Of a stretch of 64,000 nt of DNA, positions 5,613-34,751 are shown piece by piece. Source of the DNA: Escherichia coli (GTDB taxonomy: Bacteria > Pseudomonadota > Gammaproteobacteria > Enterobacterales > Enterobacteriaceae); the NCBI RefSeq assembly GCF_016903815.1, contig NZ_CP069973.1; one strand, given 5' to 3'. The position numbers were made by a program, and so were the translations under genes. The notes under the pieces were generated by a model, which did not search any database, had not been told where the DNA came from, and saw nothing but the letters and a program-made list of their open reading frames with translations. Numbering within the stretch: the stretch's first letter is position 1; each line of letters opens with the position of its first letter.

Positions 5613-5704
5613 AATTCTGTTTCATCAGACCGCTTCTGCGTTCTGATTTAATCTGTATCAGGCTGAAAATCTTCTCTCATCCGCCAAAACATCTTCGGCG
5701 TTGT

Positions 5705-8609
<2,905 letters not shown>

Positions 8610-27969: not shown

Positions 27970-30192
27970 TTGGCTGTTCAATTCGCTTATCCGTGGAACG
28001 TCCCACGGTCGGCAATCTCCAGCCCATACCTTACTTATGAGCAACAGCATCGCCGCGACCGTATGTTCGCGGCTTTGCTGCATGCAAAAAAGGTGCTTTC
28101 TCTCCAGCCCGACTGCGTGCGGTTAGATGTTTATCGCACTGCTGCGGTGCTGGAGCAAAATCAGGGTAGTCAACGAGCCAATGCATTTTTAATCAGCTTC
28201 TGCAAAAAGGCATTGCCGCGTCTTGAACTGGTCGCAAAAAAATACGAATGCGCTGGTATCAACAGCAAGGTATCAACCGCTGTTTTTGGAAGTCATTTTG
28301 ATACTCAGCAAATGCAATATCTGTCGTCACGCATGGTTAATATGGTCGCCCGATATAACCGTCTCCCGGACATGTCGCGCGCTGATGTTGACCTGTTGGC
28401 CGCTGATATTGCTAATTTCATTCGTGGTGAACTTGCCAACATTAATGACCACGGATTCGGCGAGCTTAAAACGCTGTACACCTGGTATATTCGTGCTGGC
28501 TTTATTTCCCTCCAATTCAACGTTATCCCACCACATTGGGAGCGGGTTGAAAAAAAATATGTCGGTGCGGATGAAATCGCACCGGCTATCGCCAAAATGT
28601 TTAACGATGGGTGGTGGCGCGGTCGTTTGCGCCGTGTAGCAGCTACGTGGCGCGAACACCTGCAAATTGCAGTCGGCAACGTCAGTAAGAAAAAAAACAC
28701 TTACGCGAGTAAAAACTGCGTGACTGACTGGCGTGAACAAAAGCGCCGCACTCGTGAATTTCTCAAAGGTCTGGATCTCGAAGACGAAGACGGCAACCGT
28801 ATCAGCCTAATTGAAAAATATGATGGCTCAGTTGCTAACCCTGCGATTCGCCGCTGTGAGCTCATGACCCGCATTCGTGGGTTTGAAAACATCTGTAATG
28901 AGCTCGGTTATGTCGGTGAGTTTTACACTCTAACCGCGCCGTCAAAATATCACGCCACGACTAAAGCCGGTTACCGTAACAGCAAATGGAGCGGTGCCAG
29001 CCCGGCTGACACGCAAAACTATCTAACCGGTATCTGGGCGCGTATCCGTGCCAAACTACATCGGGAAGATGTCCGTATTTTCGGTATTCGTGTCGCCGAG
29101 CCCCATCACGACGGCACTCCACACTGGCACATGCTGATGTTCATGCTGCCGGAAGATGTTGAATATGTTCGCTCCATCGTCCGTAAATACGCATGGAAAG
29201 AAGACCGCCACGAACTGAAAAGCGATAAATCCAAAAAAGCACGTTTCCACGCGGAGTCCATTGACCCGGAGAAAGGCAGCGCAACCGGCTATGTTGCTAA
29301 ATACATTTCAAAAAATATCGACGGTTATGCTCTCGATGGTGAAACCGATGATGAAAGCGGTGAGCTGCTGAAAGAGACAGCCCCCGCCGTTTCAGCATGG
29401 GCTGCGCGCTGGCACATCCGTCAGTTTCAGTTTATTGGTGGTGCGCCGGTGACGGTTTACCGTGAGTTGCGTCGCCTCGCTGATACCGAAACCGCGCACG
29501 GTCTGAGCGTTGAGTTTGCCGCCGTCCATGATGCCGCCGACGCTGGTGACTGGGCTGGTTATGTTAATGCTCAGGGTGGGCCGTTTGTCCGTCGCGATGA
29601 TTTACAGGTGCGCACACTGTATGAACCGCGTACCGAGCTTAATCAGTACGGTGAGGAAACGGTATGTATTAAGGGGGTCTACGATTCCTCCATAGGTGCA
29701 GGAAGCCCGATTTTAACCCGGCTCACTCAGTGGAAGATTGTTCCGAAGCGTGCTGTTGATTTGGCCGTTGACCTTCAGGACGGCAAAGCCGTCCCTCGGA
29801 GTTCTGTCAATAACTGTACGGGAAGCGAAAGCGATCCACCGATACTGGATTTAACAAAACCACTGAGTCGGCGTGAAAGACGAGAATTGACCAACCGACT
29901 CAGGAAGCAAAAGCCAGCAGCACGGCGAAAATTCATCCACGGAACGGATGAGCAAAACGCAGCTATAGCTAAAACTATCGATGAGATACATCTGACAACC
30001 GGCATTAATATCAGCCGGGGCGAAGCCCTGCACCTGATGGCCGGTGGTAAAAGTTGTTTTGATGGTAAATGGCTACGCGGAACGGCCAAAGGAGAAATAT
30101 TTTCCGCAGCACCATCGCATGAAGCTAAAGCTCGGAAAATCCTTAATCGTGTTGCGGCGATGGCTGAAGCATCAAAACCAATACATGAGTAA
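27970..30192 (+). CDS. replication initiation endonuclease (P2 gpA-like rolling-circle Rep)
   Basis: 740-aa product with HxH metal motif (HWHMLMF) and active-site Tyr context (YVAKYISK). Confidence 0.9.
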   Translation: MAVQFAYPWNVPRSAISSPYLTYEQQHRRDRMFAALLHAKKVLSLQPDCVRLDVYRTAAVLEQNQGSQRANAFLISFCKKALPRLELVAKKYECAGINSKVSTAVFGSHFDTQQMQYLSSRMVNMVARYNRLPDMSRADVDLLAADIANFIRGELANINDHGFGELKTLYTWYIRAGFISLQFNVIPPHWERVEKKYVGADEIAPAIAKMFNDGWWRGRLRRVAATWREHLQIAVGNVSKKKNTYASKNCVTDWREQKRRTREFLKGLDLEDEDGNRISLIEKYDGSVANPAIRRCELMTRIRGFENICNELGYVGEFYTLTAPSKYHATTKAGYRNSKWSGASPADTQNYLTGIWARIRAKLHREDVRIFGIRVAEPHHDGTPHWHMLMFMLPEDVEYVRSIVRKYAWKEDRHELKSDKSKKARFHAESIDPEKGSATGYVAKYISKNIDGYALDGETDDESGELLKETAPAVSAWAARWHIRQFQFIGGAPVTVYRELRRLADTETAHGLSVEFAAVHDAADAGDWAGYVNAQGGPFVRRDDLQVRTLYEPRTELNQYGEETVCIKGVYDSSIGAGSPILTRLTQWKIVPKRAVDLAVDLQDGKAVPRSSVNNCTGSESDPPILDLTKPLSRRERRELTNRLRKQKPAARRKFIHGTDEQNAAIAKTIDEIHLTTGINISRGEALHLMAGGKSCFDGKWLRGTAKGEIFSAAPSHEAKARKILNRVAAMAEASKPIHE

Positions 30193-30305: not shown

Positions 30306-30488
30306 ATGGTTGGCGAACATTTCAGCCGAACGCAGCAAAAGTGGGCTTGTGTGCAATTTATTGCCGAGGTATCTCTGATTGCAAACTGCAAGCCATCAGA
30401 CTTAAAGCTCGCGCTCACTCTCATTGCAGACCTAGCAAACAGCGAAAATAACGAAACCGAAGATGATAATTTTTATAAGGCTGATTAG
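30306..30488 (+). CDS. small protein, candidate Tum-like antirepressor module
   Basis: 60-aa ORF directly downstream of the LexA box; function inferred from position only. Confidence 0.45.
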   Translation: MVGEHFSRTQQKWACVQFIAEVSLIANCKPSDLKLALTLIADLANSENNETEDDNFYKAD

Positions 30489-30491
30489 ATT

Positions 30492-30722
30492 ATGAGAATC
30501 AATATCACGTTGGATAAAGAGCAAAAATTAGGGCAACAGATCATTGATGCTTTTCAAAATGAAATAACACATCGAGTACAATGCGTTTTTCCTGCAACAA
30601 AAGTTAACGTTAAGAAAGGGTCAATGACTGGTGTAGAGGCTATCGGATTCGATAAAGAGGCGGACAGAGAAACATTAGGCAGCATATTACAAGAGATTTG
30701 GGAAGACGATAGCTGGCGTTAA
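30492..30722 (+). CDS. DinI-family protein
   Basis: 76-aa product with DinI-like C-terminus (…LGSILQEIWEDDSWR). Confidence 0.75.
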   Translation: MRINITLDKEQKLGQQIIDAFQNEITHRVQCVFPATKVNVKKGSMTGVEAIGFDKEADRETLGSILQEIWEDDSWR

Positions 30723-30921: not shown

Positions 30922-31131
30922 ATGCATCGACTACCAGGTGAAATACCGCAACACAAAACTAAAAGCATCAAACTGATGGCCATCGTTCATCGTTTGCAGC
31001 AGATAATGGTCAATGAGAATTTGACACCCGCAGAGCTGGTCGGGTGTGCCGAAATAGTCAGGGATAATTACGGCAAGCTGGATAGCATCAGCAGGTCGAA
31101 ACAATACGCACCACCACCACGTCGACGATAG
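30922..31131 (+). CDS. hypothetical small protein (69 aa)
   Basis: Good SD (GAGGGTGA) 6 nt upstream of ATG; flanked by the two direct repeats. Confidence 0.4.
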   Translation: MHRLPGEIPQHKTKSIKLMAIVHRLQQIMVNENLTPAELVGCAEIVRDNYGKLDSISRSKQYAPPPRRR

Positions 31132-31205: not shown

Positions 31206-32147
31206 TTAATTTATTTTTAATGAATGGTAATCTCGTGAGTTGACCGAAGATTTGAGATAACTGCAATCATTAACCGACAGTATTGCCGCTAATAGGCGAC
31301 ATACCAGTGCCTGCATTTGCAGCAATATATCGTTACCATATTGACTGTTGTTAACACTTGAGAAACCAAGCGGTTGACCAAAAAAAATAGCCTCATGAAA
31401 ATTATCATTGCGGATGCCAGAAATGTTTTTTTTACCTGACACCCATGTGGGGATTGATAACCCATAAATTTTGCACATCCACTTTAATCGCTTGTAATGA
31501 TTTGGCGGTTTTTTATCAGGAGCCTTGTCATGCTCAGCCCACGACAAAGCAAAGCACCCATCAAGTGCCATGTAAAGGTACTGGAATTTTTCAAAAGAAA
31601 GGTATTGTGGGTTTTGAGATAAGAATAGTGCATGCACCACTGCCGCAATTCTTTTGGGGGAGTGCGCATCCTTATGTTTGCCATTTATATAATTAAGAGC
31701 CAGTTCTATGACTTCTTTTTCAGAGCATCCAACGAGAATAAAGTCGGTTAACTTAGTGGGCTTGATAGTGGTTGCATCTAAAAAACCAGCGTCAGTGGTT
31801 GTCAATCTTATTCCCTTGAAAAAAGAAAGGCACCACACAATAAAGTTGAGAGTTTCTAACGAGGATGTATTTTTTAATTTTAGTGTGTGCGTTTTGGGCA
31901 TACTGAATACTCGGTGACTATAAGGCATTGTGGATATGCCACCATTAAGGTTATATACATCTTGGTTTCCAGGGTATATCCAACCTTTCACAACGTTTTT
32001 ATCATTATTAACACGCTCCACTTTCTCATTGAGACCAGGTAAAGTAAGCAAAGAAAATTGTTCAGTCTCAATGTTAACTTCTACTGGATAGTATCCAAAC
32101 TCCGACATAATCTCATTGGGTTGCTGTTCGTCAACTTCACCTTGCAT
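31206..32147 (-). CDS. accessory protein (313 aa) with Rx4H motif; candidate HEPN-like abortive-infection protein
   Basis: A+T-rich ORF in the region between replication gene A and cos; motif GIRNDNFHEA (R-x4-H); no other recognised domain. Confidence 0.65.
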   Translation of the reverse strand: MQGEVDEQQPNEIMSEFGYYPVEVNIETEQFSLLTLPGLNEKVERVNNDKNVVKGWIYPGNQDVYNLNGGISTMPYSHRVFSMPKTHTLKLKNTSSLETLNFIVWCLSFFKGIRLTTTDAGFLDATTIKPTKLTDFILVGCSEKEVIELALNYINGKHKDAHSPKRIAAVVHALFLSQNPQYLSFEKFQYLYMALDGCFALSWAEHDKAPDKKPPNHYKRLKWMCKIYGLSIPTWVSGKKNISGIRNDNFHEAIFFGQPLGFSSVNNSQYGNDILLQMQALVCRLLAAILSVNDCSYLKSSVNSRDYHSLKIN

Positions 32148-32384
32148 ATCTTTCTCCGTTCAAAAATAGGCTCGATAATTATCGAGAGGCTATCATGTTT
32201 GGAAAGAATCAATGTCCGTAATTTTTGTAAATTTAAGGTGATTTATCAATAAATAAGCTGTGCATGCAACAGGTGCATGGTTCTGCATGCGCCGGGGTTA
32301 CCCGTTTTGTACGTGCGCCGCAAGAGCTGGCGGGGATCCAGAGTGGTCATGCAACTGCATTAAAACCGCCCCATAAAGCGGGCA

Positions 32385-32403
32385 GGCGTGGCGGGGAAAG
32401 CAT
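32385..32403. other. candidate cos site (cohesive end)
   Basis: GGCGTGGCGGGGAAAGCAT closely resembles my recollection of the P2 cohesive end (GGCGAGGCGGGGAAAGCAC); embedded in a GC-rich non-coding stretch near Q. Confidence 0.55.
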
Positions 32404-32622
32404 TGCGCGCCAGCAGTGATGCGTAATAATAAAAATTATCCTCTGAGCGCGTCGTGATGGCGCTGTCGTGGTCGCTGCTGGTTCGTTGGTGGTCGGGTGT
32501 GTTCGTGCGCGTGAGACGCATCTGATGCGTGATGGTGGTGTGCATGGAAAAGCCACCAGGAGCAGCGGCTTTACAGGAGTGGCAGGATTCAAACTGCTAA
32601 TTATGTTTCTACTATGATTAAA

Positions 32623-33627
32623 CTAATTTACATGTATGTAGAGTTCACCGTCGCCAGACCAATCGGGACACTCTAAAACAAGCCCAAACTGCTTGAATAT
32701 TTCATCAATGATTATTGTTATCTCCCGAAAATCACCAAAACCTGTAATGTGCTGGTCATTAAACTTCCCATAAAGATTCTGAAAAGCAATGCCTAATTCT
32801 GATAATTGATATCTTATCTTTGAGTTGGATAGTGTAAGGGATAGCTTTGGATCGTATTCTTTAATATTGATGTTTAGAGAATGGACATAACCCATCGCAT
32901 AAGCATAAGAGTTGATGATTAGCCTGATACGTTTTTTTACTTCGAGATACATGTCATTCAGAGAAATATTACCGTACTTATAACCCCAGATGAGTTTTTC
33001 AATCTCGTCAGATACTTCATTTACAACAGTGTCAAGATTCTCTAAAAATAAATCGATAGTTTCTTGAGGGGCAGACCCCGAAGACATGTAATTAGCGAGA
33101 TATTCAGACCATGCACGCGTGGCTGAGATAAGAAGCGCGCTACCATACTCGTTGACTGTAAAGTTTTGGGCTAAGCATGTTAGTAAGTTTTTTTCATGTA
33201 CGTGCACTAATTCATGGTGAATGCGATGGATGACTGCGAGGTATCCTTCTTCTTTCAGTTTTAAGAAGCTACCATCATTGAAAAGCTCAACAAAAAAATC
33301 AATCGATAGCACAAGGGTATATTCTTCACATAGCCCATCATTGCCAATTTTTGTTACTAACTGCCCGACGGCTGCGCCCTGTTTGCTATTGGTAAATGAA
33401 CTAGGGGATTTGTGTTGGTAAGAGGATGTTACCTTTTGAAGAGCTTCACTGAAGTTATAGGAAACAATCACGCATTTTAATTTGGAGATATCAAGATTGA
33501 GATTTTTTGTTAAAGCTCGGATAGCTTCTAGTGTGAAATTACCGATATTATTTGCTTCTTGCTCAGTAGCGAAACCTTCGAGGGTTATTTTAAAATCAGT
33601 TTCCAAAATATTAATCTCCGCGCCCAT
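32623..33627 (-). CDS. accessory protein (334 aa) with HExxH motif; candidate zincin-like metallopeptidase
   Basis: A+T-rich ORF between cos and portal gene Q; motif HRIHHELVHVHE with Glu about 23 residues downstream. Confidence 0.65.
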   Translation of the reverse strand: MGAEINILETDFKITLEGFATEQEANNIGNFTLEAIRALTKNLNLDISKLKCVIVSYNFSEALQKVTSSYQHKSPSSFTNSKQGAAVGQLVTKIGNDGLCEEYTLVLSIDFFVELFNDGSFLKLKEEGYLAVIHRIHHELVHVHEKNLLTCLAQNFTVNEYGSALLISATRAWSEYLANYMSSGSAPQETIDLFLENLDTVVNEVSDEIEKLIWGYKYGNISLNDMYLEVKKRIRLIINSYAYAMGYVHSLNINIKEYDPKLSLTLSNSKIRYQLSELGIAFQNLYGKFNDQHITGFGDFREITIIIDEIFKQFGLVLECPDWSGDGELYIHVN

Positions 33628-33704: not shown

Positions 33705-34751
33705 TTATTCTGGGTTGTCGAGGGTGTACTCTTTGAATCTGATGACCTCCATGCCGAGCCAGTCATTTACCTCCCTGAACCGGTCCTGTAGCGGCGACAG
33801 CTCGTTGCGCACAAATACCTTTGCCACCTTCTCAACATCACCGAGTGAACCGATATTCTCGGGCTTGCCGCCCATGAGCTGGAACGGTACGCGGTGCGCG
33901 TCCATCAGATCGGCGGCACTGGCCTTCTTGATGTTGAAAAAGTCATCCTTTGTGGCGACCTCGCTCAGTGGCACGATTTTGATGCCGTCCGGTTTTCCGC
34001 CGGGAGCGTAGAAAAACAGGTTCTTAAAGTTGCCGAGCCCTTTTGAGTTGCGCATCGCCTCGCGCAGCGATTCGACGTCGGTCGCGCTCTGCGCCGGGTC
34101 AGTCACATACATGATGTAACCCGCGTGCGCGCCGTTCTGATAATACTTGCGGCGGAACAGCGTCGCGGATTCATTCAGCCAGGCGGAATTTAGCGCGCTG
34201 AGATATTCGGGCAGGCCGTAAATCTCCTGATTAATGTCGGGCTCCAGCAGGTGAAACACGGTATCAGGCGCGAACTCGTGCGGCTGGGTGAAGTTTTCCA
34301 CAAACCAGAAAATCGAATCGTCGACTCCGCGTCGGGTGTATTTGGCTGGCGAGGCCAGCAGTTTGATTAACTGGCCGGTGACGCTGTGGCGCTGCTCAAG
34401 AAAGGCGTTACCGAACACCAGATAATCGAGCGCAAAGCGGCTGAAATCCTGACGGGATAACAACGGGTGCGGAATGTAGGTGCTCGCGAGCACGTTACGC
34501 TTAACATAAATTGGCGAGCTGTGATGCACGGCAGAGCGCAGGCTCTTTGCCAGCCCTGAGAAGCTGACCGGCGGCTCGTACCATTTGCCGTTACTGATGC
34601 ACTCGACGTAATCCAGAATGTCGCGCTTATCGAGCACCGGCACCGGCTCGCCGAAGGTGAACGCTGTCGTTTTTGGCGGTGCGCTGGCGGTCAGTTGTTG
34701 TGGTTTGCTGGCCTTTTGTGCGTTGGCTTTACGGGATTTTTGTTTACCCAT
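33705..34751 (-). CDS. portal protein (P2 gpQ-like)
   Basis: 348-aa product, size and position match P2 Q; adjacent to terminase. Confidence 0.9.
   Translation of the reverse strand: MGKQKSRKANAQKASKPQQLTASAPPKTTAFTFGEPVPVLDKRDILDYVECISNGKWYEPPVSFSGLAKSLRSAVHHSSPIYVKRNVLASTYIPHPLLSRQDFSRFALDYLVFGNAFLEQRHSVTGQLIKLLASPAKYTRRGVDDSIFWFVENFTQPHEFAPDTVFHLLEPDINQEIYGLPEYLSALNSAWLNESATLFRRKYYQNGAHAGYIMYVTDPAQSATDVESLREAMRNSKGLGNFKNLFFYAPGGKPDGIKIVPLSEVATKDDFFNIKKASAADLMDAHRVPFQLMGGKPENIGSLGDVEKVAKVFVRNELSPLQDRFREVNDWLGMEVIRFKEYTLDNPE

Follow-up and report, generated by a model that had tools for sequence, protein, structure and literature searches.

The ApeA defense system reportedly goes back to Gao et al. 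in 2020. Its members Ec1-Ec4ApeA have been characterized (bioRxiv 10.64898/2026.01.26.701840) and, together with DARNA/PD-T7-3 (bioRxiv 10.64898/2026.02.22.705581) and HepS from the Salmonella prophage Gifsy-1 (PMC13043305), they represent the characterized single-protein HEPN defenses, which are triggered anticodon nucleases acting by abortive infection (Abi). ApeA is activated by deoxydinucleotides, DARNA/PD-T7-3 by single-stranded DNA (ssDNA) bound to SSB, the protein that binds such DNA. Between the P2 genes gpA and gpQ lies a hotspot that has been shown to harbor a stock of anti-phage systems (Rousset et al. 2022, PMC9122126). Here we analyze ORF313, a gene from this hotspot, in a 64,000-nucleotide stretch of Escherichia coli DNA (contig NZ_CP069973.1; hereafter the window) that holds a P2-like (Peduovirus) prophage and shows 100% identity with strain 222 and others. 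The gene very likely encodes a HEPN nuclease. We favor, with fair confidence, the interpretation that its product is a single-protein prophage immune effector in which an N-terminal α/β sensor is fused to a C-terminal HEPN nuclease.

ORF313 encodes a conserved protein with a HEPN-like C-terminal domain

ORF313 occupies positions 31206-32147 on the minus strand, starts with ATG and encodes 313 amino acids plus a stop codon. The protein is identical to RefSeq WP_001622299.1, annotated as hypothetical protein, and 90% identical to 'ORF313' of P2-EC67, which was deposited among variable-region sequences of ECOR P2-like prophages. A GGAG ribosome-binding site (32154-32157, minus strand), invariant in 8 alleles, precedes the ATG by 7 nt. 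All seven diverged alleles (74-91% amino acid identity) are intact and their ratios of nonsynonymous to synonymous substitution rates (dN/dS) range from 0.15 to 0.34, showing that ORF313 is a real, functional gene under purifying selection. The open reading frame (ORF) proposed in an initial annotation of the window, made from the sequence alone, is borne out in coordinates and length. So is the A+T-richness it described, as the GC content is 38.6% in ORF313 versus 50.7% in gene A, 55.9% in Q and 56.9% in P.

The same annotation had pointed to the segment GIRNDNFHEA in the C-terminal third of the protein, which we place at residues 244-253, as a match to the Rx4-6H signature of HEPN RNases, cautioning that a short motif alone is weak evidence. 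The caution was justified. Rx4-6H appeared in 50% of 5,000 shuffles of the ORF313 protein, with a mean of 0.66 per shuffle, and the native sequence contains two matches, R166-x5-H172 and R246-x4-H251. By itself the match is therefore no more than chance and the motif alone is without statistical weight, while the stricter pattern RNxxxH was found in 1.5% of shuffles. R246 and H251 gain their meaning from conservation across the family. The predicted catalytic motif R246-N247-D-N-F-H251-E252 (RNxxxHE; 31392-31412, minus strand) was compared in 220 full-length members, where R246 is retained in 215/216, N247 in 210, H251 in 216/216 and E252 in 207. The acidic residue E186 (31590-31592, minus strand) is present in 220/220 members, and a second conserved pair, H217-x-x-R220 (31488-31499, minus strand), is found at H217 in 211/220 and at R220 in 212/220. 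Among relatives down to 25% identity R246, N247, H251, E252 and E186 are still conserved; in an alignment reaching this level G18, H87, G112, E186, H251, G261 and R284 are invariant.

An AlphaFold2 model based on a multiple sequence alignment of 27 sequences reached a predicted local distance difference test score (pLDDT) of 80.8 and a predicted template modeling score (pTM) of 0.82. It is composed of a β-rich N-terminal domain (residues 1 to ~142) and a helical, HEPN-like C-terminal domain (residues ~143-313; 31209-31721, minus strand) with predicted helices at 143-154, 163-176, 184-206, 217-227, 249-256 and 267-289. HEPN domains carry their motif at the end of helix 3 with a polar N, D or H directly after the arginine, display a conserved acidic residue in helix 2 and often have a non-helical or flexible motif region (PMC3710099). 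In ORF313, N247 follows the arginine, so that R246-N247-x3-H251 conforms to the Rx4-6H motif with a polar residue after R that marks the superfamily. E186 lies in the predicted helix 184-206 as the putative counterpart of the helix-2 acidic residue, and the segment 247-264 is modeled with low confidence.

Foldseek searches of the clustered AlphaFold database (AFDB50) returned family members and longer proteins of 416-485 amino acids with E values of 6e-5 to 1e-2. The only UniProt labels on matches outside the family were 'Apea-like HEPN' or 'ApeA N-terminal domain'. Many homologs are likewise named 'Apea-like HEPN' and one 'ApeA N-terminal domain'. The best structural matches of ORF313 are the HEPN domains of Csm6 and AbiA, with a sequence identity of only 14%. 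Because the HEPN hallmarks fit ORF313, with a family-invariant RNxxxHE and E186, the hypothesis of the initial annotation is supported computationally and passes, as far as the predicted fold goes, the test for a HEPN helical core that it had suggested.

A conserved N-terminal domain is presumed to act as sensor

The initial annotation recognized no domain besides the motif, and in this respect it was incomplete. The N-terminal ~140 residues are confidently modeled as an α/β domain (residues 1 to ~142; 31722-32147, minus strand), which we presume to be sensory or regulatory and for which no match was found among solved structures. Its near-invariant residues are F17, G18, P21, W56, R79, F81, T86, H87, G112, R114, D124 and D135. 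T86 and H87 belong to an LPKTH motif (T86-H87 at 31887-31892, minus strand), and H87 is found in 219/220 members. Since the polar residues R79, T86, H87, R114, D124 and D135 are near-invariant, the domain may well bind a ligand in a pocket or hold a further functional site.

ORF313 resembles ApeA in design and differs from the characterized families

The two proteins share several features. ORF313 and ApeA are both single-gene systems with a C-terminal HEPN domain in which G and P come after R-N-x3-H. In each, a conserved H-x-x-R precedes this motif by 12-26 residues, and a non-catalytic domain forms the N-terminal part. In Ec2ApeA the H-x-x-R pair is H487/R490, which lines the activator pocket (bioRxiv 10.64898/2026.01.26.701840). 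Moreover, Ec2ApeA and ORF313 are alike in being carried in P2-like prophage hotspots. The Ec2ApeA gene (locus L006, 2501-4252; E. coli SC516 chromosome) is P2-like prophage cargo as well, at another hotspot that is bounded by baseplate gene V and virion-morphogenesis/tail genes, and RefSeq still lists its product as hypothetical protein.

The differences are equally distinct. ApeA proteins have 583-601 amino acids and are mostly helical, with an N-terminal, a Mid and a HEPN_ApeA domain, whereas ORF313 has 313 amino acids and its N-terminal domain is a β-rich α/β domain instead of a helical one. ORF313 has neither the PADLOC match nor the three-domain helical architecture of ~580-600 amino acids that characterize the ApeA family. 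The doughnut-shaped oligomers (decamer or dodecamer rings), the activation by deoxydinucleotides and the cleavage of tRNA anticodons are features of ApeA. By sequence and architecture we place ORF313 in a compact HEPN family of its own, which leans toward ApeA within the superfamily and lies outside the characterized ApeA family.

HepS, a prophage-encoded, constitutively expressed and self-sufficient HEPN Abi protein (PMC13043305), resembles what is proposed for ORF313. Its activator is part of the infecting phage and its substrates are tRNA anticodons, functions that could be attributed to ORF313 only by analogy. HepS differs in consisting of a single HEPN domain (R100/H105) without an additional N-terminal domain, in forming a tetramer and in responding to the J tail-tip protein of siphoviruses as its trigger. 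HepS and ORF313 showed no similarity in sequence, and PDB sequence searches returned no HepS entry. DARNA/PD-T7-3 (bioRxiv 10.64898/2026.02.22.705581) has the reverse domain order, with an N-terminal HEPN domain and a C-terminal helical Pds5-like domain. It is a dodecamer of 456-amino-acid chains that senses SSB-bound ssDNA, and its PADLOC models miss ORF313. We therefore rejected ApeA, HepS and DARNA as identities of ORF313 on sequence and architecture.

The remaining comparisons concern parts of the protein or its position. Csm6 differs in its CARF sensor for cyclic oligoadenylates and AbiA in the coupling of its HEPN domain to a reverse transcriptase. Old (and Tin) of phage P2 share with ORF313 the same cos-proximal position between gene A and cos/Q in the same orientation, and phage exclusion is the role ascribed to genes of this locus (PMC9122126). 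According to a 2026 preprint, Old acts as an abortive tRNase. As an ABC-ATPase with a TOPRIM nuclease, however, Old is unrelated to ORF313 in sequence and fold.

ORF313 is a self-contained module beside cos

The region of ORF313 is bounded by replication gene A (27970-30192) on one side and portal gene Q (33705-34751) on the other, and the gene's placement to the right of gene A, convergent with a 69-amino-acid ORF (30922-31131), was correctly described before. The initial annotation overlooked that the gene sits in a cos-proximal slot, which is the position of old in phage P2. On its 5' side we found the sequence GGCGTGGCGGGGAAAGCAT, with two mismatches to the P2 cos sequence. This cohesive-end sequence (32385-32403, plus strand) matches the 'cosR; right cohesive end' annotated in P2 (AF063097), so that, counted from the right end of the packaged genome, ORF313 comes first among the genes. 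In Salmonella phage MET_P1_103_31 the genome record starts with the cos sequence, 258 bp upstream of that phage's own ORF313. In all E. coli contexts examined (5 sequence variants, sequence type 131 (ST131) included) ORF313 is found in the same slot beside cos/Q, while the cargo on the gene A side varies between a DinI-like gene with a small ORF, DUF2158 with ORF226, and ImmA/IrrE with a membrane protein. Positioned between gpA and gpQ beside cos, in a region that is variable among syntenic prophages, the gene is a typical occupant of the P2 hotspot.

The segment between cos and the ATG (32148-32410, compared across seven loci) has a mean column identity of 88% with long invariant runs and is far more conserved than the coding sequence, which shows 76-94% nucleotide identity. 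Only its cos-proximal ~150 nt are common to other P2-like phages, whereas the gene-proximal ~110 nt travel with ORF313. Compared with P2 itself, the cos segment is likewise common and the proximal promoter is not. Two σ70-like promoter candidates, TTGATA-17-AAAAAT and TTTCCA-16-GATAAT, lie within 32178-32249 on the minus strand. They are consensus matches only, and the segment containing them is highly conserved across ORF313 alleles. With promoter-like hexamers on one side and the ribosome-binding site on the other, the 5' leader contains the 16-bp perfect palindrome CTCGATAATTATCGAG (32171-32186, minus strand), of which the other alleles have only an imperfect version (ACGAGAATTATCGTG). Judging from its sequence, the palindrome could be an operator or form a leader/RNA hairpin.

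Outside of the enterics, homologs are found in a range of settings. In a Pseudomonas aeruginosa island the homolog adjoins Gabija, and in a Providencia island at the tmRNA site it adjoins AbiH and a TIR gene. In an Acinetobacter prophage it is a moron with capsid and portal genes on either side and CHAT and AbiEi genes nearby, while in Aeromonas and A. seifertii it is located in small variable islets. One of these islets, in Aeromonas veronii, lies between housekeeping genes and consists of the homolog and an AlkZ-like (PF06224) gene, with the homolog 105 bp downstream on the same strand (gene 5684-6895 in loci L013-L015). Across the E. coli and non-enteric contexts examined there is no conserved neighbor gene, and neither tandem repeats nor an Rfam family were found near ORF313. 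The same searches gave no RNA antitoxin upstream of the gene. The lack of a conserved neighbor, of repeats and of Rfam matches fits a one-gene system, and ORF313 is a self-contained promoter-plus-gene module.

The ORF313 family is widespread and probably defensive

We obtained 398 matches to ORF313 in a database clustered at 90% identity and 655 representative clusters at no more than 50% identity, nearly all of ~300 amino acids and matched over their full length. The family ranges over Enterobacteria, Aeromonas, Pseudomonas and Acinetobacter, to which the AlphaFold database adds Burkholderia, Magnetococcus, Desulfocicer and Halanaerobium. ORF313 is present in 97 of 5,426 complete E. coli genomes, ST131 among them.

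A role in anti-phage defense is probable. The protein is listed as 'hypothetical' hotspot cargo in Table S5A of PMC9122126 and was not among the systems tested in that study. The 'putative HEPN' pFR103 from strain S88 in the same study is a different protein and was rejected as ORF313. DefensePredictor (PMC13092281) assigned the allele WP_001161722.1 a log-odds score of 9.68 and the label 'Predicted novel defense gene' with no remote homolog. The motifs FGYYP and RNDNFHE are absent from those DefensePredictor tested sequences that we examined; DS-40 (WP_097419291), considered as a possible ORF313, turned out to be a different protein as well. A 2026 preprint on P2/P4 hotspots tested candidates from P4 only, and the accession of the ORF313 protein does not occur in searchable paper texts.

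By analogy with ApeA, HepS, DARNA and PrrC/RloC, the following mechanism can be proposed. The lysogen would express ORF313 constitutively from its own cos-adjacent promoter and the protein would be held inactive. Another infecting phage would then supply the trigger, which could be one of its proteins or else a nucleotide or nucleic acid arising from the infection, and which may be sensed by the N-terminal domain or in a pocket at the domain interface. Candidate sensing residues are R79, T86, H87, R114, D124 and D135 in the N-terminal domain, joined by H217 and R220. A composite active site made of R246 and H251 would thereupon be formed or uncovered by two HEPN domains. The ensuing RNA cleavage would be metal-free and most likely directed at tRNA anticodon loops, stopping translation and aborting the infection. 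Of these steps, the choice of tRNA as target, taken over from the related systems, is tentative.

Several points weigh against an immune effector of this kind. RNase activity, toxicity and phage protection of ORF313 are computational predictions, and its RNA target and trigger are drawn purely by analogy. Dimerization and the juxtaposition of R246 and H251 would be expected by analogy, and in the AlphaFold2 model pLDDT falls below 50 at 247-264, the catalytic segment, so that the active-site geometry is only putative. Cargo of the P2 hotspot is not always defensive and includes partition systems and toxins (PMC9122126). Furthermore, neither ORF313 nor any of 65 relatives has a match in Pfam, PADLOC (v2) or NCBIfam, and the alignment to ApeA is not significant: aligning the ORF313 family to a 25-sequence ApeA profile with hhalign yielded E = 0.13 with complete sequences and P = 0.039 when restricted to the HEPN domain. 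No significant alignment was obtained in any of the modes run (Ec1ApeA and Ec2ApeA singly or the 25-sequence profile, full-length or HEPN-only, local or global). In this non-significant alignment R246-N-x3-H251 is in register with R502-N-x3-H507 / R521 of ApeA, and H217/R220 fall on H487/R490 of Ec2ApeA.

The library negatives differ in weight. With Pfam models, 0/65 family sequences (27 + 38 relatives) matched at E ≤ 0.1. The Pfam model HEPN_Apea (PF18739), however, also recognized 0/25 classical ApeA relatives at E ≤ 1e-3 and missed Ec1ApeA entirely. The Pfam negative is therefore uninformative, and Pfam-based screens for ApeA-like HEPN proteins must badly under-call. By contrast, the PADLOC ApeA model PDLC02157, which did not match ORF313 or 10 distant relatives at E ≤ 1, recognized Ec1ApeA with 1386 bits and Ec2ApeA with an E value of 1.3e-12, so this negative is real. 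The control sequences were full-length Ec1ApeA and Ec2ApeA recovered from E. coli genomes via the fragments given in the supplement of bioRxiv 10.64898/2026.01.26.701840. Sequence searches of the PDB, both single-sequence and profile, yielded nothing beyond a short stretch of similarity, probably spurious, at the N-terminus of NrdB, the E. coli ribonucleotide reductase R2. The family profile at residues ~241-280 (~31308-31427 in the window) weakly matches NrdB residues 5-44 (E ~0.005), pairing 'KNDQLKEPMFFGQPV' with 'RNDxxHEAxFFGxPLG'. As the catalytic R and H are unmatched, the similarity is probably due to chance.

Alternative interpretations

A bolder version of the immune effector holds that the family is a new class of minimal one-protein sensor-effector. 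The N-terminal domain would either bind a new infection-derived ligand, in a pocket to which H217/R220 of the HEPN domain also contribute, and act as an allosteric tRNase switch (a 'mini-ApeA' differing in its trigger chemistry), or be a second catalytic center in a bifunctional protein. Extrapolated from conserved residues and from ApeA, this is a speculative proposal that we consider unlikely.

ORF313 might instead be an addiction module in which a HEPN toxin stabilizes the prophage and is kept in check by an unrecognized antitoxin (the small ORF, an antisense RNA or a host factor), with defense as a side effect or absent. Many HEPN proteins are indeed toxins of toxin-antitoxin systems, such as HepT/MNT or AbiF with its RNA antitoxin (PMC3710099), and the natural candidate for a partner is the small convergent ORF. 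This ORF (30922-31131, plus strand; 69 amino acids with a 51-amino-acid conserved core, PHROG 11386) is present in 4 of the 5 P2-like arrangements for which the ORF downstream was compared, and its core (MAIVHRLQQIMVNENLTP...APPPRRR) is 78-82% conserved beside ORF313 in YpM_46, 720R8, strains 4/0 and UTAK-18. It is nevertheless absent from the ST131 and Salmonella MET_P1 arrangement as well as from the Pseudomonas, Acinetobacter, Aeromonas, Providencia and Stenotrophomonas contexts examined, where ORF313 persists as an orphan, and we rejected it as an obligate partner on these grounds. Nor did any of the contexts examined contain an adjacent MNT-type nucleotidyltransferase gene, a tandem-repeat locus encoding an antitoxin RNA or an Rfam match, which leaves a toxin module improbable. 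One copy of the small ORF bears the RefSeq name 'meiotically up-regulated 80 protein', apparently transferred in error.

If the C-terminal domain were HEPN-like and non-catalytic, with the helical bundle as a mere scaffold, ORF313 could act in superinfection exclusion or as a regulator that binds nucleotides or proteins, its R and H serving in binding. Where HEPN domains are fused to nucleotidyltransferases or paired with them, they bind substrate and are not catalytic (PMC3710099), and the low model confidence of the motif segment would be in line with such a role. Non-catalytic HEPN lineages, however, are those that lose Rx4-6H (PMC3710099), whereas R, N, H and E of ORF313 are essentially invariant in 220 sequences. 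We regard this possibility as very improbable.

Slightly less credit still goes to a pro-phage RNase that does not kill the cell and either degrades a host immune signal, such as the cyclic oligonucleotides that Csm6/Csx1 can degrade, or processes RNA for P2. Such a function is at odds with the frequent occurrence of homologs as orphan chromosomal genes in defense islands by Gabija, AbiH and TIR, a location typical of defense rather than anti-defense genes. ORF313 moreover has no CARF or SAVED-type sensor, sits in the lysogen-expressed old slot and is scored as defensive by DefensePredictor. That the motif is fortuitous, ORF313 being unrelated to HEPN and the helical matches mere four-helix-bundle noise, is hardly credible given the family-wide conservation of R246 and H251.

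Neighboring genes

A second AT-rich cargo ORF of 334 amino acids (32623-33627, minus strand; GC 37.6%, PHROG 11743) is located between cos and Q. It has no match in Pfam, PADLOC, NCBIfam or PDB sequence searches and holds a HExxH-like stretch (IHRIHHELVHVHE). We considered and rejected a two-gene system of ORF313 and this ORF: cos lies between the two genes and the 334-amino-acid ORF occurs in 25/5,426 complete E. coli genomes versus 97 for ORF313, indicating that they are separate modules. On the gene A side, a DinI-like protein is encoded at 30492-30722 on the plus strand (PHROG 189, E = 6e-30; below the cut-off of the NCBIfam DinI model), and a RefSeq-annotated ORF of 60 amino acids (30306-30488) lies just upstream of it.

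Significance

A HEPN gene in the P2 hotspot is unsurprising to the specialist, and in the ordinary case ORF313 would be one more HEPN Abi protein in a hotspot known for such genes; its presumed sensor domain and compact size make it a good experimental target all the same. With 313 amino acids and a small presumed sensor that matches no solved fold, the protein would lend itself to studying how HEPN nucleases are silenced and switched on, and would be a natural comparison for the ligand-activated ApeA. Should ORF313 prove protective, it would add a compact and widespread HEPN Abi family that PADLOC v2, Pfam and NCBIfam miss. The P2-like prophage of the complete ST131 genome examined has an ORF313 allele, and the gene may therefore influence how susceptible this clinically important lineage of E. 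coli is to phages, with relevance to phage therapy.

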